Positions 1,578-17,711 of a stretch of DNA of 23,509 nucleotides are shown one piece after another (the first letter of the stretch is position 1; each line of letters starts with the position of its first letter). The position numbers were made by a program, and so were the translations under genes. The stretch comes from a virus, in the UHGV virus genome UHGV-1357133, one strand, 5' to 3'. The notes beneath the pieces were generated by a model. The model was not told the DNA's origin. It saw nothing but the letters and a program-made list of their open reading frames with translations, and ran no database searches.

Positions 1578-1600
1578 GATCCCCCCCTAATTTAACTTGG

Positions 1601-2476
1601 TTATAAAAGTTCGTTCACTCTATCAACTATGTAGGTTTTGTCCAGAGAATTCAAGTTTTCCCGAACAAGCAGGTCAACGTAGTAAACATCGCTAAAAATC
1701 CTTGATTCTCGGCCTGTACGAACCCGTTGCAAGAAGTCTTCATCTTCTATTGTAACTGTTACAGTTTCGTCTTCATAATTCGCGCGCCATCCGGTATTTT
1801 TGTCCTTGTGAATAGTAAGGAAGGTAATTGGTACATCGTCGAATTTTTGTTCAGAATATGACTGTTCCACAGGAACTCTGCGATATCTAAACGGCTCAGC
1901 TTCTTTTTCGTTAACTACCACAAAGTCCTTACCTTGAGAGTTAGAAATTTTGAATGTTTCATACCCCTCTTTTTGTAATGGGTTGTGTATTATTTTAGAT
2001 AACGCCTTCCGTATACTAGGTGATGACAGTAATGGCCTAAAGTACGACGGAGCGACAATCTCTTGCCCATCTTCAAGAATAATTTTGCAATCGCCATCTG
2101 CTGTTAAAGCAATTTTTTGAATTTGCCGCCCACTAATAGAACGGATTATTTCAATTAAAGTACTTCCGGCTGCGACTACACCAGTTCCTCCTATACCTAT
2201 GATACTTAAAATATCTAAATATTGTGTTGGATTTTGTATTACATCAATTAAATATTCAAATGACCCTTCGCGAAATGGCTCCACATCTACATTGAGATTC
2301 TCACTGGTACCATTGACAATTAAGTTTACTTCTTTAAGTAGATTATTTAATCCGTTGAGAGATTCAGTTAAAATATCAAGGTCTATTTTATGATTCTTTA
2401 GAGCTTCACCATCATATTTAACTACCAATTTATCAACTACTTCACCTTCATCCGTTACATTTCTTTTATTTTTCAT
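1601..2476 (-). CDS. hypothetical protein, 291 aa, predicted soluble, with a glycine-rich GIGGTG loop
   Basis: Long ORF, first gene of an AT-rich three-gene operon, ATG preceded by AGGAA. No TM segments seen. No family recognised from memory. Confidence 0.65.
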   Translation of the reverse strand: MKNKRNVTDEGEVVDKLVVKYDGEALKNHKIDLDILTESLNGLNNLLKEVNLIVNGTSENLNVDVEPFREGSFEYLIDVIQNPTQYLDILSIIGIGGTGVVAAGSTLIEIIRSISGRQIQKIALTADGDCKIILEDGQEIVAPSYFRPLLSSPSIRKALSKIIHNPLQKEGYETFKISNSQGKDFVVVNEKEAEPFRYRRVPVEQSYSEQKFDDVPITFLTIHKDKNTGWRANYEDETVTVTIEDEDFLQRVRTGRESRIFSDVYYVDLLVRENLNSLDKTYIVDRVNELL

Positions 2477-2567
2477 AATAACAATTCCTATTTAAGAAAT
2501 AAATATGACTTCTGTTGACTCTAAACATTTTCGTTCTAAAAATATACACTAACATACAGCTAAAAAA

Positions 2568-3737
2568 TTAACATATTTGCTTAATATGCCAGAAGATTTT
2601 GTCTGCATACAACTCATATGCCTCTTTCTGCTCCACCAGCCAATCGTGTTTGTTATAAACCGCCATCACCCCTCCCAGTTCATGCCCCAGCATCTTTTCG
2701 GTGACATGGGGCATAACCCCTTCTCCTGACAAATTGGTTACCAACGACCGCCTGAAGTCGTGCGTTCGCCATTCTGGTATATCAATTTTATCCCTTAACT
2801 TTTTCATGTAGAGATTTGCTGACGAACGATCTATGGCCTTGTCCAGTTCCTGCCCGGGGAAGAGAACATCGTTACCTGAATTAAGCAGCCTTTCCACGAA
2901 TGGCTTTACTTGGTCGAAAACAGGCCTGCGAATCACATTTCCCATCTTGGAGTGCTCTGATGGAGTTGTCCAAATCAAATCATCCATATTGAACTCGCTG
3001 GCGGTAGCAAGGCGAAGTTCCGACAACCTTGCCCCCCAAAGCAACAGAAGCTGATGAAGTACCTTGTTAGAGGTAACGATCTTGTTGTTTTCCAGCGCTA
3101 ACCATATTTTTGCCAACTCGGTATAGGTGAGAACCCGGCTACCAACATCAGGTTTCTTTCCTATGTTCTTAACACTGAGCTTCAAGACTTCGCATGAAGC
3201 GATCAACTGTCGGCTTATACACCAGTTCATTACAGATCGGAGCTGGAGAAGCAGCACTCTGGCCTTTTTTCCGTTTTTCTTTTCCTGCTTGTCGAAGAAC
3301 CTTACCCAGGCTGAAACAGGAATATTTACAACCGGTGCATCCGGGAATTCTGTGTACATGGTGTTGTACACAACAGACTTGTACAACGTTTGCGTATTTG
3401 GTTTCAGCGTTTCAACATACTTGCTCCACCACTGATCCAGACACTCTTTAAGTGTTAGCTCACCATCTTCTTTAGCAAAATAATTTTTAGGGTTTAGTCC
3501 CTTGAGGTACAATTCGCGCATCTCACCCACGATGACACGAGCATCTTTCAGAGACATTGCCGGATAGCGCCCTATAGTAAGGCGCACTGGCTTACCGTTC
3601 CAACGGTAGCGATGTTGAAACGTAATCGTTCCTGTCGGGGTTATGCGTACACTTAGACCGTCACCATCTGTCACTTCGGGTGCGCCGTTGTAGGGCTTAG
3701 CATTGATGCTGCGAAGTTTGGTATCACTGAGGGCCAC
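2568..3737 (-). CDS. int: tyrosine-type site-specific integrase, P4-like family
   Basis: N-terminus ALSDTKLRS...GLSVRITPTG...WNGKPVRLTIGRYPAMSLKDAR matches the arm-binding domain of P4-type integrases; the C-terminal region (HDFRRS...LGH...Y) fits a tyrosine recombinase catalytic domain. The track ORF starts at GTG 3758; GTG 3737 gives the family-typical MALSDTK N-terminus. Start is uncertain. Confidence 0.85.
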   Translation of the reverse strand: MALSDTKLRSINAKPYNGAPEVTDGDGLSVRITPTGTITFQHRYRWNGKPVRLTIGRYPAMSLKDARVIVGEMRELYLKGLNPKNYFAKEDGELTLKECLDQWWSKYVETLKPNTQTLYKSVVYNTMYTEFPDAPVVNIPVSAWVRFFDKQEKKNGKKARVLLLQLRSVMNWCISRQLIASCEVLKLSVKNIGKKPDVGSRVLTYTELAKIWLALENNKIVTSNKVLHQLLLLWGARLSELRLATASEFNMDDLIWTTPSEHSKMGNVIRRPVFDQVKPFVERLLNSGNDVLFPGQELDKAIDRSSANLYMKKLRDKIDIPEWRTHDFRRSLVTNLSGEGVMPHVTEKMLGHELGGVMAVYNKHDWLVEQKEAYELYADKIFWHIKQIC

Positions 3738-3741
3738 GGCT

Positions 3742-3794
3742 CTGTATCCTGTACACACTGAATTTCAGCATTCTGTACTCAATCTGTACGCAAT
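3742..3794. repeat. cluster of CTGTA(C/T) direct repeats, including tandem CTGTACTCAAT / CTGTACGCAAT
   Basis: Four CTGTA(C/T) copies read directly within 3742-3794, spanning the integrase start and its upstream region. Possible protein-binding sites; function unknown. Confidence 0.4.
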
Positions 3795-3946
3795 GGCAAG
3801 TGAACGAAGTGATTTTCTAAGCGGAAGAATGAGAAAGGATAGGAAATAAAAGGAATGAAATGCTTGATGATACGGGGAATGATAGGATAACATGCGACTC
3901 AAGCTGAATGCTTGAAAATCAGTTAGATATATGTCCCCTTAGTTAA

Positions 3947-4001
3947 ATGGATATAAATCAACATTTCACTAATAAATTGTTTTTATTGAATTTATATCCA
4001 T
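3947..4001. repeat. 12-bp perfect inverted repeat ATGGATATAAAT / ATTTATATCCAT with 31-nt AT-rich spacer
   Basis: Arms at 3947-3958 and 3990-4001 read directly from the sequence. Located in the AT-rich intergenic region between int and dinI. Function unknown. Confidence 0.5.
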
Positions 4002-4057
4002 AATTAATTTAAATAATGTACTCATTTATGTACACATAAATTCAACTTAACCCGTGC

Positions 4058-4105
4058 TTGACGTATGCTCCTGAAATAGCTTAAATACTGTATATCCAAA
4101 CAGTA
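4058..4105 (+). promoter_or_regulatory. dinI promoter with overlapping LexA (SOS) box
   Basis: -35 TTGACG (4058-4063), 17-nt spacer, -10 TTAAAT (4081-4086). TACTGTATATCCAAACAGTA (4086-4105) fits the CTGT-N8-ACAG LexA consensus and overlaps the -10. AGGAG Shine-Dalgarno at 4111-4115 precedes the ATG at 4123. Confidence 0.8.
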
Positions 4106-4122
4106 AAGTAAGGAGAAAAAAT

Positions 4123-4362
4123 ATGTTTGTTGAGCTGGTTTATGACAAGCGTAATGTTGAGGGATTGACGGGAGCCAGAGAGATCATCCTGGCTGAACTG
4201 ACGAAGCGTGTGCATCGGATTTTCCCGGATGCAGAAGTGAAGGTGAAGCCGATGCAGGCAAACGGCCTGAATAGCGACGCCAGCAAAAGCGATCGAGAAA
4301 AGCTAAACCGTATGCTTGAGGAAATGTTTGAAGAAGCCGACATGTGGCTGGTTTCAGAATAA
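4123..4362 (+). CDS. dinI: DinI-family DNA-damage-inducible protein (prophage homolog)
   Basis: 79-aa product with the DinI pattern (FPDAEV...acidic C-terminus EEMFEEADMWLVSE) and a LexA box immediately upstream. Strand is opposite to the neighbouring tail genes. Confidence 0.85.
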   Translation: MFVELVYDKRNVEGLTGAREIILAELTKRVHRIFPDAEVKVKPMQANGLNSDASKSDREKLNRMLEEMFEEADMWLVSE

Positions 4363-4521
4363 GAGCATTGTTTTGTCATATTGCATATGTAGAATCCGCA
4401 CCGGCTGGCAATCATTCAATACTCGCACTATCGAACGAACGCCAGCCTGCCGCCGCACGTTCTTGCATACGACGAGCGGCGACATCTATTAAAAGGGAAA
4501 AAGGACTAACTGCCCCTTCCT

Positions 4522-5718
4522 TTACTGCCCTTTCAGTTTGGCAATCTCAGCTTTTAACTCTTGCACTTGGCCCATTATCGCCAGGATTGCTTCATGGTGA
4601 AGTGCCGCCGCGATGCCGTAAGTATCCACTGATTCGACATTTTCAATTTTTTCCCCGTCAGGTAGTTCATAAGTCATGTTGTTGTTTTTTATCGCACCAG
4701 GAAAATATGTCCTGGCTTCACTAGCCACAAAGCCGAACCCTTGTGTTTGCGTGTTTTCATAAAACCAGGAATATCCACGCATGCTTTCCATCGCCACGAG
4801 TGGTTCAGGAATTGTCTCTAACAGGCTTTTTACCCTGATGTCTGATACAGGTTGCCAGTTACCAACCGCCCTGCCATCCGGGAAGAAGTTAAATGAGCTA
4901 CCAGATCCATCTGATCCGACATACAATTGCACAGCCCTGACATCGGTAGAATCACCACGAACAGGACCCAGAGTTAACCCACCATCAAACCATGTTGCCT
5001 GTAAATATCCAACGAACGCACCAGGGGAAATAGTTGCTGCATTGTTCCATATTTTTATGCCATTCACGTTTGCGGAGTTTTTTAAGCCTATATAACTTCC
5101 CGCAGTCGCATATATAGAACCATCAACAGTGCCGCCAGATTTATTGTTTATAGTCAGTAATCTGTTATCATCTCCAGCCGCTACAGTTCCAGCCACTGTT
5201 CCAATATTCTTTGTCGCGCTACTTCCCAGGCCTAAGTTTGTGCGAGCACCTTCTTCAGTGGTTGATCCAGTACCGCCCTGATTAACAGGCACAGCTCCAC
5301 CGGATTTAGTAGCCATGTTATCAGACAAGTATTTCCATGATGGTCCGCTGTATGTACTGCCGTCCGGCAACTTCACTGTTATGTTTCCAGATGCGCTGTA
5401 TACCTGCTGCCAGTTCTGCTTGTCGTAATTCAGTCCACGTAGCGCTTCTGCACTTTGTGCAACCAGCGCTGCAGTTACCATGTTGAGCGCCACGCGGGGA
5501 ACGGCAGACCACGCAGCTTCGGACTGTGTCGGCCCTGTGTATGCGCTGACCAGCGTCAGGCCCGTGTCACTCTCTACCGATTTAACCGGCAGAGTGTATG
5601 GTACACCTCCGACCATTACTACAACGAAATCTCCTGCAGCGAGTTCCGTTACAAATGAAGTACCGATACCCGTCACAATGTCAGAGTTATTGGTCAGGGT
5701 TAAAGTTCCTGCGGACAT
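4522..5718 (-). CDS. tail fibre protein with C-terminal intramolecular chaperone (peptidase S74-like) domain
   Basis: 398 aa, Gly/Ser/Thr/Asn-rich fibre-like sequence. C-terminal region contains SDIRVK followed by a coiled-coil tail (QVQELKAEIAKLKGQ), typical of self-cleaving chaperone domains. GAGGAAAT Shine-Dalgarno upstream. Confidence 0.75.
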   Translation of the reverse strand: MSAGTLTLTNNSDIVTGIGTSFVTELAAGDFVVVMVGGVPYTLPVKSVESDTGLTLVSAYTGPTQSEAAWSAVPRVALNMVTAALVAQSAEALRGLNYDKQNWQQVYSASGNITVKLPDGSTYSGPSWKYLSDNMATKSGGAVPVNQGGTGSTTEEGARTNLGLGSSATKNIGTVAGTVAAGDDNRLLTINNKSGGTVDGSIYATAGSYIGLKNSANVNGIKIWNNAATISPGAFVGYLQATWFDGGLTLGPVRGDSTDVRAVQLYVGSDGSGSSFNFFPDGRAVGNWQPVSDIRVKSLLETIPEPLVAMESMRGYSWFYENTQTQGFGFVASEARTYFPGAIKNNNMTYELPDGEKIENVESVDTYGIAAALHHEAILAIMGQVQELKAEIAKLKGQ

Positions 5719-5728
5719 GGTTATTTCC

Positions 5729-6688
5729 TCAGTACATGTTTGGAAGGATTAAAACGGGCATATTAATATTCTGGTTAAATGACATGTCGAATCCGTTGTC
5801 ATTATAATTACCGACTACCTGGTTATACGCTGACCTGACATTTCCTCCTGACATTACAACGCCTTTTTTTCTTACATTGAAGTATCCATCGACTCTCCTT
5901 GACTGCGCACCTGTAAATACTATCTGGCAATATTTATCACCTACATACTGATTACTGTCGGTCATGGTTAATTGCTGGTCAAATACAAATGGTCGCTTCA
6001 CTGTTGAAAATGTTACCTGTCCTGCTGAATTTGTCATGGTGATGCCATCACCGGCTACAGGAGCGGTATTATTGAAAATTACCAGGTCCATTGTTACAGA
6101 TGCGGAAACATCATCCCTTCCTGAATAACTGATGTCTCTTACAATAATATTTGTTCCGTCAAATCCTACAGATACATTATTGTTATTCCATTTCCCGAAC
6201 GGTATTCCTGATACGGGAAGATCCATCGAACCGTTGACTGTCACCGTGCCAACGTAAGCACATGTCATTAATTTAGCCTGATTTGAAATTGCCGTGAAAT
6301 CAGTAGAGTTGGAAACGAGAAGTCCTTCGTTGTAGGTAGTGGCAGGAAGAATTTCAAATACTGTTCCTGCCCAGTTTGGTATTCGCTGGTAGTTGCCCCT
6401 GTTTGTACCGTTAACAGTAACACCACTGTCTCCGTTTCTTGTCACTGATGTCATATATATCGGCAAAACAATCCATGTTTGATTGTCAGCAAATTCCTGT
6501 ATGTCAACAGGACGTGTCGGCAAAACAAAAACTGTAGAACCCGGAGTTAACGGAGTATCGACGCGAAATTGATTCGCTCCGGTTCCGTTCCCTGAAAAAC
6601 TGGCACAAAACGACGGGGCACGAAGCCCCGCGGTAATAGCCATCACAGGACGGCCATCGTTATAATCTATCAGTATTCCTTCCGGCAT
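5729..6688 (-). CDS. phage tail protein, putative receptor-binding/fibre-associated (family not recognised)
   Basis: 319-aa ORF immediately downstream of J with AAGGTGA Shine-Dalgarno. N/T/G/S-rich composition suggests a beta-rich fibre protein. Function assigned from position and composition only. Confidence 0.55.
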   Translation of the reverse strand: MPEGILIDYNDGRPVMAITAGLRAPSFCASFSGNGTGANQFRVDTPLTPGSTVFVLPTRPVDIQEFADNQTWIVLPIYMTSVTRNGDSGVTVNGTNRGNYQRIPNWAGTVFEILPATTYNEGLLVSNSTDFTAISNQAKLMTCAYVGTVTVNGSMDLPVSGIPFGKWNNNNVSVGFDGTNIIVRDISYSGRDDVSASVTMDLVIFNNTAPVAGDGITMTNSAGQVTFSTVKRPFVFDQQLTMTDSNQYVGDKYCQIVFTGAQSRRVDGYFNVRKKGVVMSGGNVRSAYNQVVGNYNDNGFDMSFNQNINMPVLILPNMY

Positions 6689-6696
6689 ATTTCACC

Positions 6697-9411
6697 TTAT
6701 GTCCAGCGACCGACCACTACACGACCGCCACCGGATAAATTTACAGTGACGCCATTACCATTCAAAACGACAGTATTATTCACGCCATTAAAAGCAAATT
6801 GACCGCTTGTGGCATAAAGTTTGCCGTGAAATTCACAATCTCCACTTTTATCAATATTCCAGCCACTTGATCCTGCTACAAAATTGTTTGACCTTATATA
6901 ATTGCCAATTTTGGCGTTAGTGATACTCCCGTCCTGAATCAGAGCATCCCTGATAAATACCTGGCCGTTATATACGAAGAAGGCAGCAGTATAGTTTCCA
7001 GGGTCGCTACCGGAATAAATGCCGAACTGATCGGCCGCAAAAACTACAGTTGATTTGTATGAGCTACCATCAGGCTCAATGGACATGCCGAAACCGGTAT
7101 TGTATTTCACTCCGTTCCTGACAATACCCATATTGAGCGTATAGGATGCCTTCGCTGTACCATCACTATTAACGACTGCGGTCATCTTTTGATTCACTGC
7201 TGATGTTAGCTCGCCCTCAGGGCCAATCTGCGCCTGAACATACGTGGACAGGTCAGCAAGTCCCTGCTCAGCAGTCGCTACCGTGGTTTTCACGACAAGG
7301 ATATCGGCACGTACCTCACCGTACTGTTGATACTGGTGCTCAACAGTGCCGTGGTTCGCCAGCGAATTTTCCATAATGCCTTCGAGGTTTACATCAACCC
7401 CTTCCTGCACATTTTTAAATGCATCAGAATTCTGAACGGCATCATCAATGAGGTCGATCAGGCCTCCGGTATCCATTGAGCACAGCGCAGGAACCTCAAC
7501 AAATGCTGATGCACCAAAGGCGTTAATCGTCCTGATGTACCAGTAATAGGTGTGACCTACCTGTAGCTGGTTGCTGGTCCATGTAGTGCCGATGCCCTCT
7601 CTAGTGGCGTTACCCTCAACGATTTCAGTCGTGGTTCCGGGAAGCTGAGTTTCGCCGGATGTCCAGAAGTCAAACTGAGTGGAAACGTTTGTTATCGCTG
7701 CAAGACGCGGGATCAGCGTGACGGCAAAGAAACCCTGCTCAATATCAACATGCGACGGAGGAGGCGGGGCCTCAATGCTGAATTCCAGATAGCCTTCAGG
7801 AGATTCCGCTCCCATCTGGTTAACGGCGATAACATGGGCGGTATAGGTATCCTTTGGCAATCCGGTCAGACGTGTAAATGAACCCGGAACCTGAACAGAA
7901 AGCACCATCTGGCCGTTACGACGAATGATGACTTTGTTATAGGTCACCTGCCCCACGTTTTCCCAGGAAAGAATGCCCTGTACCACCTGCCCGATTTCCT
8001 CAACGGTGTATCTGAGGCTTTGCGGCTGTGCCACGCCACCGGACGGTAACTGCGTGAATGGTGGCCGCTCTACAGGCTTACCTATTGCATCACCCCAGAC
8101 ATCAGCAGTTTCCTGTTTCAGCGTTAGCTGTACACCATTCTGCACGCCAAACTTCCAGTCGGTAACGCGCATCTCTACGTTGACGATGCCCAGTGACGGG
8201 AAATTCACCTTCACATACATTCCAGGACGATAACGGTACCCGCTCAGATTCAGCGTCACGTTCATCGTTCTGGCAATACGGGTGCGCTTTAACTTCACAT
8301 CGGCCAGACGCTGAGCCTGAAACTCACTCGTCACAAATCGCAGTTTCATATCCTGCGAAATTTCTACGCCGTCCTCCGTCACCCACTCACTTACGGATAC
8401 AGATGGAAAATCCGCTTCAGTAAACCCCTGCTCAGGATCGACGAATGTTCCCTTGATAGTGTTTACCCGCTCCGACTGGGAGACTTCCGGCATGATTTCG
8501 ATATCGCCGGCCAGCTGGCTTTCGGTGATCACTTCCGTTGCCGGGCCATAATAGGCACCAACAAGCAAGCCGTGCTTACCGGCTATATAGGTGACATCAC
8601 CCGCACAGGCCGCAAGCATCCCCTCAAGAATGCTCACCTTGTTTTCGCTGAGGTCAAACTCACCGTTGATCGTATACCGCTTTTCAACAGTATTACCGCC
8701 AGTGATTACCTCCTCATCGCAGATATTCGCCGCTTCCTGAAACTGGTCCCAGAGGATGTCTGAATCCGGGACTTTCAGATAGTTGCGGTAATAATCCAGA
8801 ATGACCAGCGCAGCATTGTTGCTATATGCCGTCTGCCCGGTTCGCGGGTCGTATATAGCGCGGCCCAGCTTTTCGACTTTAATGTTGGGGATACCAGACG
8901 GGAATTTTTCAGCATTAAATTTAAGGGATACGCGCAGCCAGGTGATCCCTCTCCCGATCATGTCTTCTTTCCATGACGGGCAGTTTTCCAGCATATAAGG
9001 GTCTGCCGCCTGGCGGCTGGTGTGCAGCTCGAAAAAGGCATGCTCAGGATAGCTACTGATCGGTTCATCACCCAGCCAGACCGTCTGAATACCGGATAGC
9101 GGATGTCCAGCCAGAGCAATGGCCAGATGCAACATTTCGCCATCATCCTGTTCGCCAGCCTGCTCTTCGGAAAAGAACAGAGTGCCCGCTGATGTGGAGC
9201 GACCATAAACAACGGTTTTGGCACTGGCTGCCGCACGCAGAACCTGTTTACGCTCTGCCGTATCGCGATAGGAATTCAGAGACGGCGTTTTGGTCAGCGC
9301 CTGAGTAGCGATCTGTGCGGCGACGGTGATCACCATCGCAATGGCATACATTTCATTTGCCGCCGCCACACCTGCGGCAATGCTGGCAACAATAGGAACA
9401 GCAGCAGGCAT
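6697..9411 (-). CDS. host specificity protein / central tail fibre (lambda J-like)
   Basis: 904 aa in the expected position after the NlpC/P60 gene. Central segment ...PPPPSHVDIEQGFFAVTLIP...FDFWTSGETQ...YYWYIRTINAFGASAFVE resembles the fibronectin-type region of J-family proteins. Confidence 0.8.
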   Translation of the reverse strand: MPAAVPIVASIAAGVAAANEMYAIAMVITVAAQIATQALTKTPSLNSYRDTAERKQVLRAAASAKTVVYGRSTSAGTLFFSEEQAGEQDDGEMLHLAIALAGHPLSGIQTVWLGDEPISSYPEHAFFELHTSRQAADPYMLENCPSWKEDMIGRGITWLRVSLKFNAEKFPSGIPNIKVEKLGRAIYDPRTGQTAYSNNAALVILDYYRNYLKVPDSDILWDQFQEAANICDEEVITGGNTVEKRYTINGEFDLSENKVSILEGMLAACAGDVTYIAGKHGLLVGAYYGPATEVITESQLAGDIEIMPEVSQSERVNTIKGTFVDPEQGFTEADFPSVSVSEWVTEDGVEISQDMKLRFVTSEFQAQRLADVKLKRTRIARTMNVTLNLSGYRYRPGMYVKVNFPSLGIVNVEMRVTDWKFGVQNGVQLTLKQETADVWGDAIGKPVERPPFTQLPSGGVAQPQSLRYTVEEIGQVVQGILSWENVGQVTYNKVIIRRNGQMVLSVQVPGSFTRLTGLPKDTYTAHVIAVNQMGAESPEGYLEFSIEAPPPPSHVDIEQGFFAVTLIPRLAAITNVSTQFDFWTSGETQLPGTTTEIVEGNATREGIGTTWTSNQLQVGHTYYWYIRTINAFGASAFVEVPALCSMDTGGLIDLIDDAVQNSDAFKNVQEGVDVNLEGIMENSLANHGTVEHQYQQYGEVRADILVVKTTVATAEQGLADLSTYVQAQIGPEGELTSAVNQKMTAVVNSDGTAKASYTLNMGIVRNGVKYNTGFGMSIEPDGSSYKSTVVFAADQFGIYSGSDPGNYTAAFFVYNGQVFIRDALIQDGSITNAKIGNYIRSNNFVAGSSGWNIDKSGDCEFHGKLYATSGQFAFNGVNNTVVLNGNGVTVNLSGGGRVVVGRWT

Positions 9412-9809
9412 TAACGTACCCTCCAGACACTCATCGGCTTAACCCGCAGGCTGACAAGACCATTTTCGCCAGGCACCCATACAACGCCGGAATACACCAC
9501 GCCAGCGCACTTCGTCCCGGCATTCTCGACGATGGCAATATCCCCACGCTGCGCCAGTTTCACCGGTACTTCGTCGAGAAATCGGGCAAGCACCTTTTCA
9601 AGTGAACCACCACCGCGAAGAATGGCCTTTTTAGCCCCTGGTTCGCTGTCATACGTCCCGCGCCATTCAGCGGCATAATCCTCACCGCACATGGCCTGTG
9701 CGCAGTCGGCCGCAAACAGACAACAGTCATGCTCGCCCCATGAAAAAGGCCGCTCAATGGCGGCCTTCATCACTACGTTTAATCTGTTTTGCCAGTCAGG
9801 GTGCTTCAT
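9411..9809 (-). CDS. phage tail NlpC/P60-family cell-wall peptidase (lambda K-like / GTA gp14-like)
   Basis: 132 aa with a Cys-containing motif WGEHDCCLFAADCAQAM. Sits directly upstream of the J-like gene and is start/stop coupled to it. Confidence 0.6.
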   Translation of the reverse strand: MKHPDWQNRLNVVMKAAIERPFSWGEHDCCLFAADCAQAMCGEDYAAEWRGTYDSEPGAKKAILRGGGSLEKVLARFLDEVPVKLAQRGDIAIVENAGTKCAGVVYSGVVWVPGENGLVSLRVKPMSVWRVR

Positions 9810-9815
9810 GCTTCC

Positions 9816-10400
9816 TCACTTATAGGTAAATCCGGGAGCGTCTTTTTTACTGCCCCAGTAAATCGAACGCTCTGCCATCTGAGCTACGTAACGAAATATG
9901 CGATCGCCTGGATAAGCGGCCTGCTGTGACTCATCGGTATAGCGGTCAGGGAACGGACGCTGCCAGTCTTCAAAAATATTGCTGATGGTGTACTGGAGCG
10001 CGTTAGTCTCGCCGACTGTCGCGCCGGTACTGGATACCCGGCCCTTAAACAGGAGATCGGCAACCTGAACCACACCGTTATCATCCATAGCAACAAGATA
10101 AATCTCGGCATTTTTTCCCACACAACGCTCATTCAGCGTCGTGGCAAAAAGCGACAGATCAAGACCAGAGAGCGTCATTTTGACCTGGGTCGGACTGGTG
10201 GTGTTGGTTTCGCTGGCATCATCGACAGAGCCCATTCGCCCCATGCCGTAATAAACATATCCGCCCAGCACGATTGTCCCGGTGCCGGAATGCACGTAAA
10301 CAGTGCCGGACTCAAACTGGATATTGGCAGCAATCACAGCCGTGACCCGGTCGCGGGAAAGCCAGTCGACCATCGAATCAGAAAAAGGGGAATACAACAT
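9816..10400 (-). CDS. phage minor tail protein (DUF2163 / lambda L-like, by position)
   Basis: 194-aa ORF with GGAGGAGG Shine-Dalgarno, between the distal-tail gene and the NlpC/P60 gene. Gene order matches HK97/GTA-type tail tips. Confidence 0.55.
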   Translation of the reverse strand: MLYSPFSDSMVDWLSRDRVTAVIAANIQFESGTVYVHSGTGTIVLGGYVYYGMGRMGSVDDASETNTTSPTQVKMTLSGLDLSLFATTLNERCVGKNAEIYLVAMDDNGVVQVADLLFKGRVSSTGATVGETNALQYTISNIFEDWQRPFPDRYTDESQQAAYPGDRIFRYVAQMAERSIYWGSKKDAPGFTYK

Positions 10401-10993
10401 TAAAACGCCTCCTCCAGTTCCAGCGTGTAACTGGTAAATACCCCAGGTACTCGATTACCCGCGCCCTGCTGGTTATCCTTCAGTTTGAAAATGCCGTATG
10501 GTTTCGCCACTTCGATAGCCGCGCCATCCGGTGGCGACCAGCGCAACATGGGCGCGAATGTCACAGTGGCTGTACCGGTTGATGTGCTCGTCACATCGGC
10601 GGTCACCATCTTCAGTTCGTCGTTAACGGTGATGTAGTCTCCACGCTCCAGAACTACGACACCGGGAGCCCATCCGCTCGTCTGTAATTCTGTGCCTGTC
10701 TGGTTTGCACCATTCACTACCGGAGAACCCGCGGGAGTGCGCCCGCCCCTTCCCCAGTCATGGATTTTTACCCTGCCATATTCGCCATCCAGCTCGGCAA
10801 TCAGCGAATCAAGACGCCGGGATTTATCATCCGACAGGTTGTTGAATGTCAGGGAGCATACCCAGCGGGTGCCGGGATAACGGACAGTCTGTGACGCACC
10901 ATTAAAAGGAGATCGAAATGTTTTGGTGTTACTTTCAGGTCGCCACGTTAATGACGCCGGACAGACGTCGTCCGGCCATTCAAGTGCAGCCAT
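10400..10993 (-). CDS. phage distal tail protein (DUF2460-like, by position)
   Basis: The track ORF starts at 11035, but the second ATG at 10993 has a CAGGAG Shine-Dalgarno 6 nt upstream while the first has none. First conserved-backbone gene after the tape measure side. Confidence 0.55.
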   Translation of the reverse strand: MAALEWPDDVCPASLTWRPESNTKTFRSPFNGASQTVRYPGTRWVCSLTFNNLSDDKSRRLDSLIAELDGEYGRVKIHDWGRGGRTPAGSPVVNGANQTGTELQTSGWAPGVVVLERGDYITVNDELKMVTADVTSTSTGTATVTFAPMLRWSPPDGAAIEVAKPYGIFKLKDNQQGAGNRVPGVFTSYTLELEEAF

Positions 10994-11155
10994 AAATACT
11001 CCTGGAGAAATACGCGCAACGGCGATACTGATCATTTGTCAGGGTGTTACAGGTCAATATCCCTGGTTAAAGTGTGTGGTTCAGCCCGTCAGTGGTTGGA
11101 CACTGGCGCACTCAGCGCAGAGGGATGGCTGATTACCTCTGATTAAGGAAATATC

Positions 11156-11449
11156 ATGTCTAATGAACAGCGTATCGAAAGCTTCGAAGCCCGTATTCGT
11201 AAGCTTGAAGAGGAAAACACTAAGCAGAAACAAAAGCTACTAACTCATGAAATTATGACGGGACTTATGTTGACAAATATTTTAAGAATGGTTGACTCAT
11301 TATCTCCTAGTGCAAACTTATCACAACGGTTGCTGGAATCCCTGCAAAAAGGCCAAGCAAAAATTGCTGATAGCGATGCGAGAAATGACCCTCATACAAA
11401 GGACGCATTTGAAATGGCAATTAAGACTGTGAATCGAGCGCTAAAATAA
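11156..11449 (+). CDS. hypothetical 97-aa protein (cargo gene inside tail module, opposite strand)
   Basis: ATG preceded by AAGGAAA 5 nt upstream. AT-rich relative to flanking tail genes. Predicted coiled-coil N-terminus (EQRIESFEARIRKLEEEN). Its 3' end overlaps the convergent 119-aa gene by 29 nt. Confidence 0.5.
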   Translation: MSNEQRIESFEARIRKLEEENTKQKQKLLTHEIMTGLMLTNILRMVDSLSPSANLSQRLLESLQKGQAKIADSDARNDPHTKDAFEMAIKTVNRALK

Positions 11450-11780
11450 CAGCGTTATCAAGAAGACGATCTCTTAGTTTATCGTAGTCCTTATCATTTT
11501 CCGCGGCCTGTTTTCGGGTCGCTTCAATAATCTTCGAGAGAACATTTTGAGCATGCTCTTTCGCTCTCTGGTTGTACTCTTCAAGCGTAAGCTCTGGCGT
11601 TAAGTCTTCGCTGTATTGGATAGTAGCTAAGGTTTCTTTGCTAATTTTCACAGACACATTACTGCCAATGCGTTGTGTCGATGACATGCGTAAATTTTCT
11701 CCGAAGGATATTCTTACTCCATTTTCTTCCGGAAACCCAACTTTAAATTCAAGAGCCTCAACTCGCTGTTCTAAAGTCAT
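11421..11780 (-). CDS. hypothetical 119-aa protein (cargo gene downstream of tape measure)
   Basis: ATG preceded by AGGAGA 5 nt upstream. AT-rich. N-terminus MTLEQRVEALEFKV resembles the N-terminus of the convergent 97-aa ORF. Confidence 0.55.
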   Translation of the reverse strand: MTLEQRVEALEFKVGFPEENGVRISFGENLRMSSTQRIGSNVSVKISKETLATIQYSEDLTPELTLEEYNQRAKEHAQNVLSKIIEATRKQAAENDKDYDKLRDRLLDNAVILALDSQS

Positions 11781-11825
11781 AATTATCTCCTGCCTTTCGG
11801 CTAATTAAATTAAGGATGCAGACCA

Positions 11826-14800
11826 TCACACGCCTAACAAACGACGTGCCTGGCCTCGATTGGAAAAGTCCTGCAGCAAATCCTGACGCGCCTGTTTAGC
11901 GCCATCATTCGCCCCCTGACGGGCTGCTTCCTGCATTGCCTGTTTCAGTGCTGCATCACCATTACCGGATATGGTGAAATGCTGGGTGATGTGCTGAGTT
12001 ATGCCATTTCCGGATGCTGGAGTCTGTGAACCAACCACACGCACTCCTAACGATCCATCAGCGGAGCGGGTTAACGGCATGATAGCTTCCGGCCCAGCTT
12101 CCCCCATCAAACCTGCGCCTTTGGCGAAGGCAAAATAGGTAGGCGAACTGACGATGCTGTTACTGTATGCGCTGAGGCTTGCAGAAGCATAGGCGCCTCC
12201 CTTTGCGTTGAGTTGAAGTTCTGATGCTGCTGAGTTGTAGGCGCCAGACGGCGTTGAGCCACCAGCCGACCCGCCAAACAGCCCACTGAGGAATCCACTA
12301 CCCCCCATAGATGACTGCAGAGAATTAACGATCATCGCATTGAGGATAATTTTCTGCATAGACTGAAGAACCGAACTGGCCCAGTCTTCCCAGTCAACCT
12401 TATTACCGGAAAGCGCATCAGAAATATTTCCCACCAGCCCGGTCATGGCATTGTTTACCAGATCTGCCGACTGTGAGGCATAATCGGAAGCAGTTTCAGC
12501 CCAGTTAGCGAATCCTTCACGCATACCAGCCGTCCAGTCGCTACGCTGTGCATCAGACGCAGCATAGAAACCTTGCTGATCGCGCAGGCGCTCATCAAGA
12601 TAACGTTTGTTTAAAGCCAAGGCTTCTTGGTAGAAAGCTTCGTCTATTTCACCAGTTTGTCGTTGCCGAAGCAGATCAGTATTCTTCTCTTCAAATTCCT
12701 TACGAATATTGAACTGTTCCTGAAGCCTTTCGCGAAACCGAGAACCCTGACCGTAACCGATTAGTTGAGCCTCGTTCGCTGCGCGGGAGCTTGCATTACT
12801 GTCTGCGAGATTCGCCTCGTAATTACGAAGTTGCTCACGTATTTTTTGCTGATCAATAAGCGCGGCATTCTGCAACAGGGTCTGTTTCTGGGACTCTGTC
12901 AGCGTCGCCAGTTCGCCCTGGCTAACCTGATATTTCAGTTTTGCCAGTTCGGTATTTTGACCAGCCAGAGCAATCTGCTCTTTCTGCTGCTTGATCAGCT
13001 TGTCATATGTATCAGATGTTTTTTCGGCCTCGGATTTTCCACCCTTATGGCGGCTTGAGTTACGAATTGCTTGTAATTGCCTGGCAGACTCAACTTCCAT
13101 GCTGACATATTTCTCACGCCAACCAGCTGGAAGGTTCAGATCAGATGCATCGAATTCTGCCTGCTTTCGAGCCTTATCCAAACCCTGAAGGCCAGATAGC
13201 TCAAGCTGTCGCTGTGCTTTCTCAATAGCTTGTTGTTGCTTATTATCAAGCGCAGGAAGTACAGGTCCTGCATATTTTGGTGGGGACACTGCTGTAGACT
13301 GTCTGGAAACCTTGTTCAGCCGGTCATACATCTCTGTAAGAGAACTTACGGCGCCAGCCATTTCTACTGTTTTATTTATAGCCTGATCAGTTATGTCGTT
13401 TATTAACTGTTGTGTTTGCTTTCTTTTATTGAGCATTTGCTCAAGTCGGCCTTCTTCAACCGCAAGTTCTGAAGCAAAGTCTGCGGCTTTCTCAACCGCA
13501 TCGTTATACAGCCATGTCCCCTCTGAAGCAGAATTGGCTGCTAATTTTGCGTTATAAAGTTGATTGGATAATTCAGCAACTTTCTGCTTCTGCTGTTCAA
13601 TCGCACTATTCTGAGCATCCAGTGAAATATTCGCCTGTCCAAGGTTGGCGGATATCTGCGTCTGAGACATTGATTTCAGATTATCTCGTACCTGCTCGAT
13701 TGTGTCCGCATATTGGATTGCAGATTCCCTGGCTTGTTCTTGGCGTTGATACATCGTGTACCACGCCCCAGCACCCAACATTAAAATTCCTGGCAAACCA
13801 CCAACTAACGACAAAAGAACCGTAGCGCCAGTTTTTACAAGCCCCAGCACTGATGTTGCAGAGTTAAGTGCCTGCTGAGAGGCTGCAACGGCTCTGTTTG
13901 ACTGTACCAGTGCCGCATTTGCTGTAATCATTTCCCGGCGCTTGGATATGGCATTTTGAGTGGCAGTAGCCTCAGCATTAGTATTCTTTGCCAGCACAAG
14001 TTCTGACTGAGCAAGCTGGTAAGCTCGCTCAGCAGCAATAGCATCGGCGGCGGCCTTGCGTTGTGATTGGGTAGCAGATTCAGCCCTTGCAGCTGCGAGC
14101 GCAATTTCGTTCTTTCTGGCATCTATTAATTGCGCCGTCTGGTTCCCAAGATCGCCAAACATCCCTCCAAGATAGCGAGCTCCACCTATCGCAGCCAAAG
14201 CTCCGGCAGCCGTAGCCACAGTGTCTATATTGTCAGAAACCGTATTCAATACGGCAACAAGAGTACTTGTCGCACCAGTGGCTTCATTAGCGCCACCTAC
14301 CCATGCCATGAAAGCATTTTCGACTTTCGTCGTGGCAGCAGAAACGGTCTGCGGCATTGCCTCAAATTCACCACGCATAGTGCCAAGTTGACTTATCAGG
14401 GCCGGGACAACTTTATCTGCGGTTAGCATCCCCTGATCGGCCATTGCCTTCAGATCTTTACGAGCTACACCCATCCCTGCGGCAAGAGCACGGATAACTC
14501 GATCACCGTTTTCGTTGACGGAGTTAAATTCCTCGCCTCGAAGAACACCCTGCGCCAGAGCCTGGCTGAACTGCGTGATTACCGAACTCGCTTCAGACGC
14601 GCTTGCGCCTGACAGCTTAAGCCCTGTTGATATAGCCTCGGTTACCTTCAGAACCTCTTCTGAACTGTAGCCATATTCACGCATAGAAGCGGCTGAACGC
14701 GCAAAAAGACTCGCATTATCAGAGAAGGCGGTTCCGGTTCGCTGGCTAATATCCATCAGCGCCCGCTGGGACTCCGTGAAATCATCTGACGACTGGGAAG

Positions 14801-15113
14801 CCTGCTTTAGCCTGGCATTAACAGAGCTCCATTCATCGGCCAGCGATATAAGATGACCAGTCGCAAATGCTCCAGCAAATGCACCAGCCATTCCCAGTGC
14901 TGAGGCCTTCGCGGTGTTTATTTGACTAGTTACCTCAGCCAAGGCACGCTGAGTTTCACGCGAAGCTGCGGCCGATTGGCGTCCTCCAGTCTGCATTACC
15001 CGGTAATAGTCATTCCCCATTCTTGAAGCACGAGAAATTTCAGACTGGAATGACTGAGAGTTTGCAGATATTTTGATGATCAGTTCGCGCAACGTAGCCA
15101 TATTTTCACCCAT
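11826..15113 (-). CDS. tail tape measure protein
   Basis: 1095-aa Ala/Gln-rich, largely helical protein in the canonical position after G/T. The first ATG (15111-15113) directly abuts a T-tract with no Shine-Dalgarno; the in-frame ATG at 15099-15101 (MATLREL...) is a more plausible start. Confidence 0.85.
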   Translation of the reverse strand: MGENMATLRELIIKISANSQSFQSEISRASRMGNDYYRVMQTGGRQSAAASRETQRALAEVTSQINTAKASALGMAGAFAGAFATGHLISLADEWSSVNARLKQASQSSDDFTESQRALMDISQRTGTAFSDNASLFARSAASMREYGYSSEEVLKVTEAISTGLKLSGASASEASSVITQFSQALAQGVLRGEEFNSVNENGDRVIRALAAGMGVARKDLKAMADQGMLTADKVVPALISQLGTMRGEFEAMPQTVSAATTKVENAFMAWVGGANEATGATSTLVAVLNTVSDNIDTVATAAGALAAIGGARYLGGMFGDLGNQTAQLIDARKNEIALAAARAESATQSQRKAAADAIAAERAYQLAQSELVLAKNTNAEATATQNAISKRREMITANAALVQSNRAVAASQQALNSATSVLGLVKTGATVLLSLVGGLPGILMLGAGAWYTMYQRQEQARESAIQYADTIEQVRDNLKSMSQTQISANLGQANISLDAQNSAIEQQKQKVAELSNQLYNAKLAANSASEGTWLYNDAVEKAADFASELAVEEGRLEQMLNKRKQTQQLINDITDQAINKTVEMAGAVSSLTEMYDRLNKVSRQSTAVSPPKYAGPVLPALDNKQQQAIEKAQRQLELSGLQGLDKARKQAEFDASDLNLPAGWREKYVSMEVESARQLQAIRNSSRHKGGKSEAEKTSDTYDKLIKQQKEQIALAGQNTELAKLKYQVSQGELATLTESQKQTLLQNAALIDQQKIREQLRNYEANLADSNASSRAANEAQLIGYGQGSRFRERLQEQFNIRKEFEEKNTDLLRQRQTGEIDEAFYQEALALNKRYLDERLRDQQGFYAASDAQRSDWTAGMREGFANWAETASDYASQSADLVNNAMTGLVGNISDALSGNKVDWEDWASSVLQSMQKIILNAMIVNSLQSSMGGSGFLSGLFGGSAGGSTPSGAYNSAASELQLNAKGGAYASASLSAYSNSIVSSPTYFAFAKGAGLMGEAGPEAIMPLTRSADGSLGVRVVGSQTPASGNGITQHITQHFTISGNGDAALKQAMQEAARQGANDGAKQARQDLLQDFSNRGQARRLLGV

Positions 15114-15138
15114 AAAAAAAACCCGCTTGATAGCGGGT
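15114..15138 (-). terminator. intrinsic terminator-like hairpin after the 62-aa cargo gene
   Basis: On the minus strand: stem ACCCGC / GCGGGT (15121-15126 and 15133-15138) with a 6-nt loop, followed by seven T (15114-15120), ending at the tape measure ATG. Confidence 0.6.
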
Positions 15139-15144
15139 CGTGAG

Positions 15145-15333
15145 TTATAAACTGTCTTTTCTTTGGTGAGCGACTTGTATTAATAAATCTATTTGCGCAT
15201 CTTGCTTTTTATTTATCTCTTTAAGGGCTTCAACTTGTTCATTTGCCCTTGTGCTAAACCGTAATAAATAAAAAATCACAATTAGATTTATCAGCCAGCC
15301 GAATATTCCAAACACTACTACCAGTGGTTCCAT
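15145..15333 (-). CDS. hypothetical 62-aa single-pass membrane protein (cargo gene between G-T and tape measure)
   Basis: Strongly AT-rich ORF with AGGAGG Shine-Dalgarno 4 nt upstream and a terminator downstream. N-terminal hydrophobic helix LVVVFGIFGWLINLIVIFYLL, then a charged helical tail. Confidence 0.6.
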   Translation of the reverse strand: MEPLVVVFGIFGWLINLIVIFYLLRFSTRANEQVEALKEINKKQDAQIDLLIQVAHQRKDSL

Positions 15334-15390
15334 AACGCCTCCTTTACTTAAGGAAAGAGCGTATCGCTACATTGAAGGCATGTGAAGCAA

Positions 15391-15669
15391 TTATTGTGTC
15401 GCAGCTGTAAGTGCCGCCTCAAGCCCTGCAAACGGGTCCTTCGGTTCTGATTGCTCATCACCACCCCAGCGCAGGATCGCATCGTCCAGCGGTACTTTTG
15501 CCCCCTGCGAGCCGTAGATGGCAGAGACAATCTGCGCTGCATGGATATCACCGCGAATATCGCCAACCGGACTTTGCCTGTCGTACTCAATCCACATCAG
15601 AAGCTCGCTTGCCGTCATATTCTGCCGAAGCTCTGAGAGCGTGCGCCCCATCCGGAGCGCAAGCGACAT
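15391..15669 (-). CDS. tail assembly protein T domain (likely made as a G-T fusion by -1 frameshift)
   Basis: Product MTASELLMWIEYDRQ... resembles the lambda gpT region. The frame is -1 relative to G and stays open upstream to about 15729, overlapping the 3' end of G. Confidence 0.6.
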   Translation of the reverse strand: MSLALRMGRTLSELRQNMTASELLMWIEYDRQSPVGDIRGDIHAAQIVSAIYGSQGAKVPLDDAILRWGGDEQSEPKDPFAGLEAALTAATQ

Positions 15670-15677
15670 CAGAAACT

Positions 15678-16061
15678 TTACGCCGGGGGTTGAGACTTTT
15701 CCCGCGCTTCGTCCGCGTTGTTGATCAGGTCAAGCGCCTGCTTGAGCAGGCGTGAATGGACGGGGCCGTAGATTTCACGCACCTGCTCTTCTTCGTCTAC
15801 GCTGAATACCGGTTGCTTATCGGTGTCGCACAGGACGTCAATGAAGAGCACCACGTCAGCGCAAAGATTACGGTGTGCCTTTTCCGATACCGACACATTT
15901 TCATCATCAGCACCCGCTTTCACCACTTCCTGCCAGCGCAGCCAGGCTTCACCTGATGGCTCACGGAGAACCACTTTGACGCCTTCCCACTCAGGAACGG
16001 CGACCGTCTTATGACGAAATCCCGACATCTTAGCCAGGGCGAGATTTTTAATATTCTTCAT
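15678..16061 (-). CDS. tail assembly chaperone (lambda G-like)
   Basis: 127-aa acidic protein directly upstream of the T frame and tape measure. Contains CGGGAAAAG near its 3' end, where the T frame opens. Confidence 0.55.
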   Translation of the reverse strand: MKNIKNLALAKMSGFRHKTVAVPEWEGVKVVLREPSGEAWLRWQEVVKAGADDENVSVSEKAHRNLCADVVLFIDVLCDTDKQPVFSVDEEEQVREIYGPVHSRLLKQALDLINNADEAREKSQPPA

Positions 16062-16069
16062 GCGACCTC

Positions 16070-16513
16070 TCAGGAGCCAGACTCGATGTTTTCAGGCTTA
16101 CCTTTCAGGCGCAGGGAGAACGTTGCCGCAACTACGCCGTTGGTACCGGAAGACCAGGTGTGCTGGCGGATTTCAGCCAGGAACTTAAAGCCCTTGCCGG
16201 ACGGGAAGATAACCTGGAAAGCGTAGGTCGTATCGTTGTCATACGCTTCACGCAAGGCGTCCTGCGCCGGGTTTTTGTAGAAGTTGCCGGACAGAGAGAT
16301 TTCTGACGGAGAAGGCAGGCCGTTGACGTTCTCCTGCTCGGTAGAGCAAAGCGTGGTTACGTTAATATCCTGCTTCTGGCCACCAGTGAACTGAATTTCT
16401 TTGATGGTGCAACTCAGATCGAGGAAGGTTGCGGTATCCATCGTTTCTTTGGTGGCTGGCAGGGAGGAAATAAGGATCTTCGTCAGCTGCGATTTTTCAT
16501 AAAGTGCAGACAT
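16070..16513 (-). CDS. major tail (tube) protein
   Basis: 147-aa ORF with AGGAGA Shine-Dalgarno, located between the tail completion gene and the G/T chaperones. Assigned by position and size. Confidence 0.6.
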   Translation of the reverse strand: MSALYEKSQLTKILISSLPATKETMDTATFLDLSCTIKEIQFTGGQKQDINVTTLCSTEQENVNGLPSPSEISLSGNFYKNPAQDALREAYDNDTTYAFQVIFPSGKGFKFLAEIRQHTWSSGTNGVVAATFSLRLKGKPENIESGS

Positions 16514-16520
16514 AGCTGTC

Positions 16521-16554
16521 TCCTGGAAAAAGAAAACCCGCCATCAGGCGGGTT
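16521..16554 (-). terminator. terminator-like stem-loop directly upstream of the major tail gene
   Basis: On the minus strand: 8-bp perfect stem AACCCGCC / GGCGGGTT (16535-16542 and 16547-16554), 4-nt loop, then TTTTCTTTTTCC (16521-16534) running into the major tail Shine-Dalgarno. Confidence 0.5.
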
Positions 16555-16572
16555 CGTTGGGTGAATTAATTG

Positions 16573-16920
16573 TCAGGGGGTAACTTTAAAATCCAGGGTG
16601 GCACGGTAGAGCCGATAATCTGGCTCGTACCCGGGGATTTTTACCACCTCTGTAGGGTTTAACTGCTTAAGCGATGCGAGCGCCAAATCTCTCAGGGATC
16701 GTGATTCAGTGATCGTTGTGGCATACACATCGACCTGAACGGAAACCCTGCTCTCTGCCTGGCCACACAGTACGTCAGCGGAAACATCATCGACGATGGA
16801 AAAGATAATCCAGGGTGGCGAGACAGACGGTTTTCCGTCACTACCTAATGGCGCAACGTAGGGATATACCCGCCCTTCTGCCAGGGGAGAAAGCAAAGCG
16901 TAGATATCATCTTCATTCAC
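16573..16920 (-). CDS. putative tail completion / tail terminator protein (DUF3168-like)
   Basis: 115-aa ORF with GTG start overlapping the stop of the gp10-like gene (GTGA). Position between gp10-like and major tail genes. Confidence 0.5.
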   Translation of the reverse strand: MNEDDIYALLSPLAEGRVYPYVAPLGSDGKPSVSPPWIIFSIVDDVSADVLCGQAESRVSVQVDVYATTITESRSLRDLALASLKQLNPTEVVKIPGYEPDYRLYRATLDFKVTP

Positions 16921-17376
16921 TTGCTCAACACCTCATCAATAGCCTGATTCATCCTAGCAATGGCGACGCTGGCGGCCTCTTCCTCGCGCGTATCGTAAGC
17001 GGGTCGCACAAAAGGATGCGCAGGCATGTTCGCAGTGCCAATCTCCACAAAGCGCCAGTAAAAGGCGTTTCTCGGGTTACTCGCCTTCATTGTGTTATCG
17101 CTGTTCCCGGTGCGCGGGTTAACACCACGAATATGGACGCCGGAANNNNNNNNNNNNNNNNNNNNNGCGGCGACGGCTTTTTTGGGTCACCACCACCACG
17201 TTTTTTTTCAGTTTCCCGGTACGCACGGGAGCGCGGGCGATCACTTCTTCCTTAAGCACTTCGGCTCCAGCGCGCGTTGCATCACGCAAAACCTTGTTGT
17301 TTTCGGCACGGCTCAGTAATTCCAGATCGCGGGATATCTCTTCAAGGCCAGAAAAATCAAGACTGATATCAATCAT
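16917..17376 (-). CDS. HK97 gp10-family protein, interrupted by an assembly gap
   Basis: N-terminal part MIDISLDFSGLEEISRDLELL... runs into the N run. My translation of the frame below the gap is open down to TGA at 16917-16919 (...FYWRFVEIGTANMPAHPFVRPAYDT...AIDEVLSK). True length depends on the real gap size. Confidence 0.6.
17146..17166. other. assembly gap (run of 21 N)
   Basis: Directly visible in the sequence. Confidence 0.99.
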
Positions 17377-17711
17377 TTTTCCGCTCCATTTTTACAGAGT
17401 ATTTCCAGCCTGGTGGCTTTACTGTCTGGTATGGGGGGGCCGATGATATTCAGTACCGCGCCTTTAAATGGTCCTGTGAGCACCTTTAATCTTGACGCAG
17501 CAGTCACATCACGCCGGAAACGGACCCACACCCGGATCGTTGCCTGCGCCGTTTCCGCACCCGATTGCAACTGCTCCCTGCCGCTGATACCCAATACTTC
17601 CGCCCATATGGTCTTTCCCTCCTGCCACTCTTCAACCGGCTGGCCTGTCGTATCACGAAAAGAAGTAAAGTTCAGGATAGTAACGCGATGGCGTAATCGA
17701 CCTGCCTGCAT
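17373..17711 (-). CDS. head-tail adaptor / head closure protein
   Basis: 112-aa ORF with AGGAGG Shine-Dalgarno and ATGA overlap with the next gene. Position after the connector gene in an HK97-type order. Confidence 0.65.
   Translation of the reverse strand: MQAGRLRHRVTILNFTSFRDTTGQPVEEWQEGKTIWAEVLGISGREQLQSGAETAQATIRVWVRFRRDVTAASRLKVLTGPFKGAVLNIIGPPIPDSKATRLEILCKNGAEK

Follow-up and report, generated by a model that had tools for sequence, protein, structure and literature searches.

We found that the 277-nt segment at positions 15114-15390 of the window, by which we mean the whole 23,509-nt stretch of virus genome UHGV-1357133 that was analysed, is a copy of the gene 15 moron of phage HK97, an AT-rich, horizontally acquired superinfection exclusion cassette in the late tail operon. 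We assign this reading a probability of roughly 0.9. As the founding phage moron it has been described before, with a function in the literature since 2012; the word moron was first applied to the HK97 gene 15 element, which is located between the tail chaperone and tape measure genes (PMC3594210).

The cassette contains one open reading frame on the minus strand (15145..15333), running from the ATG at 15333 to the TAA at 15147-15145 and encoding a 62-aa product, MEPLVVVFGIFGWLINLIVIFYLLRFSTRANEQVEALKEINKKQDAQIDLLIQVAHQRKDSL. Its upstream neighbour in the late operon is the gene for the tail assembly chaperone G, a homologue of HK97 gp13 (15678..16061, minus strand; Pfam Phage_TAC_1, E = 2.9e-59), which shares about 96% nucleotide identity with the HK97-group phages. 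Between them lies the T segment of the G-T frameshift product, corresponding to the C-terminal part of HK97 gp14 (15391..15669, minus strand; Pfam Phage_tail_T, E = 1.5e-20). According to the ORF coordinates, T is in the -1 frame relative to G, and the HK97 record describes gp14 as 'translated due to a -1 frameshift'. A run of GGGAAAAG is located at 15696-15703, just 5' of the G stop, and the -1 shift into the T frame must fall there; read in the G frame (CGG GAA AAG), GGGAAAAG departs from the canonical X XXY YYZ heptamer. The stop codon of T (TAA, 15393-15391) marks the left edge of the insert. The downstream neighbour is the tail tape measure gene (11826..15101, minus strand). The position between T and the tape measure gene, as given in the preliminary description, was confirmed by the ORF map, the Pfam assignments of the neighbours and the HK97 annotation.

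The spacer between the T stop and the 62-aa ORF is 57 nt long and contains the Shine-Dalgarno sequence AGGAGG (15338..15343, minus strand), which we read from the sequence 4 nt 5' of the ATG. The ORF has a GC content of 0.333 and a GC3 of 0.286, compared with 0.573 and 0.591 for T, 0.50 and 0.443 for the tape measure gene, and a GC content of 0.485 for the window; the gene thus departs from the composition of its flanking genes, with GC 20 points lower. These data agree with the earlier claim of an AT-rich 62-aa ORF with a strong AGGAGG, to which we add the minus strand that had been omitted. Six nucleotides past the ORF stop, a terminator scan identified an intrinsic terminator (15114..15139, minus strand) with an 8-bp stem, a 4-nt loop and a T8 run. 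The hairpin, GACCCGCT-ATCA-AGCGGGTT, occupies 15139-15120 and is followed by the T run at 15121-15114. Its centroid and minimum free energy structures have energies of -13 and -14.7 kcal/mol, respectively (z = -3.7), and none of 200 shuffled sequences folded as well. The hairpin that had been proposed as the gene's own terminator is therefore real, and its T run comprises eight Ts, not seven. We also observed further hairpin terminators in the late operon, e.g. at 16555-16534. Thus, the terminator by itself is no proof of an autonomous unit.

The tape measure ORF has two in-frame ATGs, at 15113 and 15101. Counted from the first, the ORF is 1095 aa long; the second gives the N-terminus MATLRELI. 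The HK97 record and PGAP both place the start at the equivalent of ATG 15101, this ATG is preceded by GGGTGA, and the MATLRELI start is kept in phages AsXd-1, LAU1 and SW-37 and in the Klebsiella relatives. Taken together, these data indicate that ATG 15101, not ATG 15113, is most likely the start. The T8 run abuts only ATG 15113. The earlier statement that the terminator ends exactly at the tape measure ATG consequently holds for the first ATG and not for the likely start.

To identify the cassette, we searched phage records by megablast, and found matches of 97.7-97.9% identity in HK97, HK75, HK106, HK446, HK633, mEp234 and mEpX1, and of 93.7% in HK544. The HK97 record (AF069529) annotates the counterpart of this ORF as gene 15, 'Gp15, moron product', and shows a 'terminator, putative' at the same place. 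Only one nucleotide distinguishes the window from HK97 over the interval from the end of T through nucleotide 29 of the tape measure ORF. Gene 15 of HK97 is likewise flanked by G-T and the tape measure gene, and its Shine-Dalgarno sequence and terminator are identical to those of the window. The window protein and HK97 gp15 are identical at 61 of 62 residues without gaps, the one difference being L14 in the window and M14 in HK97. The window allele is the common one, since it is 100% identical in HK75, HK106, HK446, HK544, HK633, mEp234 and mEpX1. We also found the exact 277-nt segment in 6 of 5426 complete E. coli genomes, where the gene bears the PGAP name 'YebO family protein'. One of these carriers, the prophage of E. 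coli KCJ3K291, was considered as the same prophage and rejected, because it has a lambda-type tail tip unlike that of the window.

The 62-aa protein is predicted to have a single N-terminal transmembrane helix. Residues 3-24 form a hydrophobic segment in which 19-residue Kyte-Doolittle windows reach 2.5, and this segment is immediately followed by RFSTR. The 38-aa tail holds 7 K/R and 6 D/E residues, and a single-sequence AlphaFold model shows one unbroken helix over residues 2-61 (pLDDT 94). The proposal of a single-pass membrane protein with a charged helical tail was thus well founded. The window ORF and its homologue in K. spallanzanii differ at 12, 4 and 32 sites in the first, second and third codon positions, with a pN/pS of 0.17. 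On this pattern of substitution, the ORF is a real coding sequence under purifying selection.

Comparison with protein families assigned the product to YebO. The Pfam YebO profile (PF13974, gathering cut-off 27 bits) matched with 38.7 bits (E = 1.2e-9), aligning residues 14-59 with profile positions 8-53 of 80. E. coli K-12 YebO (b1825, 95 aa) shares the N-terminal transmembrane helix and the subsequent R-x-S-x-R-x-N-x-Q...L motif. In a MAFFT alignment with b1825 the window protein is 35% identical; in contrast to YebO, it is 33 aa shorter, has a diverged C-terminus and is phage-borne. The correspondence does not extend over the full length, since the C-terminal third of YebO has no counterpart in the 62-aa protein, indicating N-terminal, family-level homology rather than orthology. 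The protein also matches phrog_5031 (E = 4e-29), whose PHROGs entry reads 'unknown function', while PADLOC and NCBIfam gave no match for it. With no model in the latter two and this PHROGs label, exclusion genes of the gp15 kind are missed by defence-system finders. Most public records call the gene 'hypothetical protein' or 'YebO family protein', and this gives the present assignment its value for annotation.

The near-identity to HK97 gp15 is the basis on which we read the 62-aa protein as a probable superinfection exclusion protein. According to the commentary 'The moron comes of age' (PMC3594210), written by the authors of the experimental work, and a later citing paper (PMC10883804), gp15 is made from the prophage and inserted in the inner membrane; genome injection is the step at which it excludes HK97 and HK75, and receptors stay unblocked. 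The same sources state that exclusion is independent of the immunity group and depends on the tail of the incoming phage, and it is relieved by a swap of the HK022 tail region. These published genetic experiments place the tape measure gene in the tail region that sets gp15 sensitivity. A 2026 review that cites Cumby 2012 and 2015 describes gp15 as obstructing injection by way of the TMP-PtsG complex (PMC12939059). The preliminary description had offered a toxin, an exclusion factor or an envelope modifier as possible roles. Exclusion is the one published for gp15 (PMC3594210); the toxin and envelope modifier proposals found no support. The further suggestion of a self-contained cargo gene, laid out like an independently expressed lysogen gene, matches what the same commentary reports for HK97 gene 15. 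The description had missed, however, that the cassette is a known element.

Based on these similarities, we propose the following mechanism. In the lysogen, the cassette would be transcribed alone while the surrounding late genes are silent, as published for HK97, and transcription would end at the hairpin-T8 terminator. The 62-aa product would enter the inner membrane via its N-terminal helix, with the tail probably facing the cytoplasm, as the positive-inside rule predicts from the RFSTR cluster after the helix. There it would block genome injection by HK97-type siphophages after adsorption, and the tail tube/tape-measure region of the incoming phage would set sensitivity; the step affected may be that of the tape measure and PtsG, in line with the review cited above. 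During lytic growth, late transcription would have to read through the terminator into the tape measure gene, presumably by Q-antiterminated RNA polymerase as in other lambdoid phages; Q lies outside the window.

A standard promoter scan of 14000-17000 returned no promoter-like site. The best candidate sigma-70 promoter from a relaxed scan is a weak one, TTCACA-N17-TACGCT (15358..15386, minus strand), with 8 of 12 matches; this was the maximum found, and it is no better than what occurs elsewhere in the region. By eye, GTGACA-N17-TAGGAT can be read for the K. spallanzanii homologue, in a slightly shifted place. Since no promoter reached the consensus threshold, the independent transcription of the cassette rests on the HK97 literature, not on the window sequence.

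Other prophage-expressed envelope proteins likewise act after adsorption, namely Ltp of Streptococcus phage TP-J34 and Sie2009 from Lactococcus phage Tuc2009, which stop siphophages from injecting their DNA, and also SieA of podophage P22. For Ltp, and for gp15 through hybrid genetics, escape maps to the tape measure or tail region (PMC10883804). However, these three proteins are unrelated to gp15 in sequence and architecture and are encoded at other genomic positions. [quoted passage not shown]

We then considered whether the protein could instead keep the cellular function of the host YebO family, with exclusion not being its role in this prophage and host. Membership in Pfam YebO is compatible with this explanation. 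In addition, this prophage combines a hybrid tape measure with a different tail tip, its host probably belongs to another genus, and the relevant competitors may therefore differ. However, the protein is identical to that of HK75 and six other HK97-group phages and differs by one residue from the HK97 gp15 that was tested. The commentary (PMC3594210) also reports that gp15 is related to YebO in its N-terminus and diverged in its C-terminus, and that overexpression or deletion of E. coli YebO had no effect on HK97. Moreover, the adjacent tape measure is at least 99% identical to HK97 gp16 over residues 1 to about 720 (87% overall, with a diverged C-terminus), so self-exclusion remains plausible. 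We consider a retained YebO function improbable.

A small membrane toxin, either holin-like or resembling a type I toxin-antitoxin peptide, which kills the host or stabilises the prophage, is even less probable. The size and architecture of the product, with one transmembrane helix and a charged tail, do resemble those of small membrane toxins. However, we found no overlapping antisense RNA, and Rfam at the gathering threshold identified no RNA family in the whole window; the PADLOC search described above was also negative. The closest family is a chromosomal, housekeeping-type small protein, YebO. Furthermore, the 98% identical gp15 is constitutively expressed from the prophage and protects the lysogen from superinfection, according to PMC3594210, and a lethal toxin fits poorly with this observation.

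A moron in the sense of Juhala et al. 2000 is extra DNA that is absent from collinear relatives and has a deviant composition, its own terminator and its own promoter. The composition of the cassette is deviant, and a terminator follows the gene. To examine the insert in relatives, as the preliminary description had recommended, we compared the interval between T and the tape measure gene in related phages. The G/T DNA of AsXd-1 (an Aeromonas phage), SaltyDalty (an Escherichia phage) and LAU1 (an Enterobacter phage) is 96-97% identical to the window, and the similarity stops at about 15395, within the last T codons. The slot of AsXd-1 and SaltyDalty encodes a protein of about 97 aa whose N-terminus resembles a signal peptide and which contains several cysteines, and that of LAU1 a 121-aa protein with the lipobox LIAGC; both are unrelated to gp15. 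On the other side, the tape measure DNA of Salmonella phage SW-37 is 85% identical to the window from 15126 onward, and its slot encodes a 137-aa lipoprotein (LLAGC, phrog_890). In BP-4795 the gap between T and the tape measure gene is only 51 nt and the slot is empty. The insert is thus absent from five otherwise collinear related phages (BP-4795, AsXd-1, SaltyDalty, LAU1 and SW-37). The slot coordinates are 349-830 in SW-37, 3207-3620 in AsXd-1, 3257-3690 in LAU1 and 1598-4280 in Klebsiella phage ST147-VIM1phi7.2, where an IS21 element has also landed in the slot.

This distribution supports the interpretation of the 62-aa gene as exchangeable cargo. A conserved accessory or essential tail-assembly gene, acting for instance with G/G-T on the tape measure, would account for its place inside the tail-assembly block directly 5' of the tape measure gene and for its near-perfect identity in all nine HK97-group phages found, but this explanation is hardly tenable, because the slot in close relatives holds unrelated genes or nothing: phages with nearly identical G/T lack the gene, SW-37 has a lipoprotein gene beside a similar tape measure start and terminator, at most 40 of the 161 phage records with G/T homologues encode a gp15/YebO-like protein, the GC content is far below that of the flanks, and the encoded membrane protein belongs to a bacterial family.

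YebO-like cargo was also found outside the HK97 group. In the Klebsiella phages and the K. spallanzanii prophage, a YebO-like gene occupies the same slot beside quite different G/T genes. Specifically, in Klebsiella phage ST147-VIM1phi7.2 (QBP28426) and K. spallanzanii SB6411, the gene lies directly 5' of MATLRELI and has its own hairpin-T terminator. These proteins are 47% (QBP28426) and 77% (SB6411) identical to the window protein, and the Klebsiella phage form, at 77 aa, has a longer C-terminus. A contig scan with the 62-aa protein, a method that needs exact peptide words, returned one locus, that of K. spallanzanii.

A hairpin-T terminator follows every cargo, just before MATLRELI. In SW-37 the stem after the unrelated cargo is near-identical to that of the window (arms ACCCGC...GCGGGT), and both the T run and the leader of the tape measure gene match closely as well. 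The terminator may therefore be a feature of the slot, part of its conserved right edge, and not of each cargo. The cargoes themselves are varied envelope proteins, comprising YebO-like transmembrane proteins, two different lipoproteins and a secreted Cys-rich protein. One could speculate that the slot is a dedicated exchange site for exclusion cassettes, with its edges at the 3' end of T and at the terminator plus tape measure leader, that phages swap small envelope-targeted genes there, and that all these cargoes may target tape-measure-mediated DNA injection, like gp15 and the Ltp lipoprotein of TP-J34; we regard this idea as tentative and rather doubtful. If it were true, genetic linkage would join each exclusion gene to the gene that encodes its target. 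The different envelope-protein genes found in the same slot of closely related tails are candidates for injection-blocking activity.

The similarity of the window to HK97 at the DNA level extends over only about 21% of its length (roughly 12533-17604). By this measure and by its gene content, the window prophage is a mosaic and not HK97, and the mosaic differs from that of HK97: the head genes, the C-terminus of the tape measure and the tail tip of the window do not resemble those of HK97. The tail tip, made up of a distal tail protein, DUF6950, a 904-aa J-like protein and DUF6453, belongs to the SW-37/FSL SP-016 type rather than the lambda M-L-K-I-J type. The tape measure gene at 11826-15101 is a hybrid, and the tail tip genes at 4522-11035 resemble those of Salmonella phages SW-37 and FSL SP-016. 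Since the distal 6 kb matches E. coli genomes at only 81-88%, the host is probably another enterobacterium rather than E. coli.

Several further observations were made in the window. The major tail tube protein (16070-16513) is 147 aa long, as in AsXd-1, SaltyDalty and LAU1, whereas HK97 gp12 has 234 aa; the C-terminal extension of the tail tube protein present in HK97 and the K. spallanzanii locus is absent from the window. At 17146-17166, a run of 21 Ns splits a gene of the HK97-gp10 family into two ORFs (17376->17119 and 17090->16917). The run is masked or unresolved sequence, not biology. Two convergent small ORFs occupy the region 11036-11825, which is bounded by the tape measure stop (11826) on one side and by the gene for the distal tail protein (10400-11035) on the other. 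One (11780->11421, minus strand, 119 aa) matches phrog_11851 and has no Pfam match; the other (11156->11449, plus strand, 97 aa) is antisense to the late operon and has no Pfam or PADLOC match. Their GC content is 0.39-0.41, compared with 0.54 in the distal tail protein gene, and the region looks like a second cargo slot.

A DinI-like gene is located at 4123-4362 on the plus strand (Pfam DinI, E = 8e-24), and a tyrosine integrase gene with an Arm-DNA-bind_3 domain at 3758->2568. The prophage seems to end, and a neighbouring element to begin, within the interval 2568-4362. The E. coli counterparts of the integrase (83-88% identity) adjoin tRNA-Arg, yet ARAGORN found no tRNA in the window, and this suggests the remnant of an att site or an element integrated in tandem. 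When 3700-4600 was scanned against Rfam by E-value, the only match was a chance-level sRNA fragment.

In the prophage of E. coli KCJ3K291 (NZ_CP054407), which carries an identical gene 15, we found a second 'YebO family protein' at 26725-26949. It is 74 aa long and 41% identical to the window protein, and its gene is located between those for a K-like C40 peptidase and an I-like tail assembly protein. This prophage therefore holds two YebO-like cargoes in one tail operon, and it has an IS3 element at the end of its tape measure gene.
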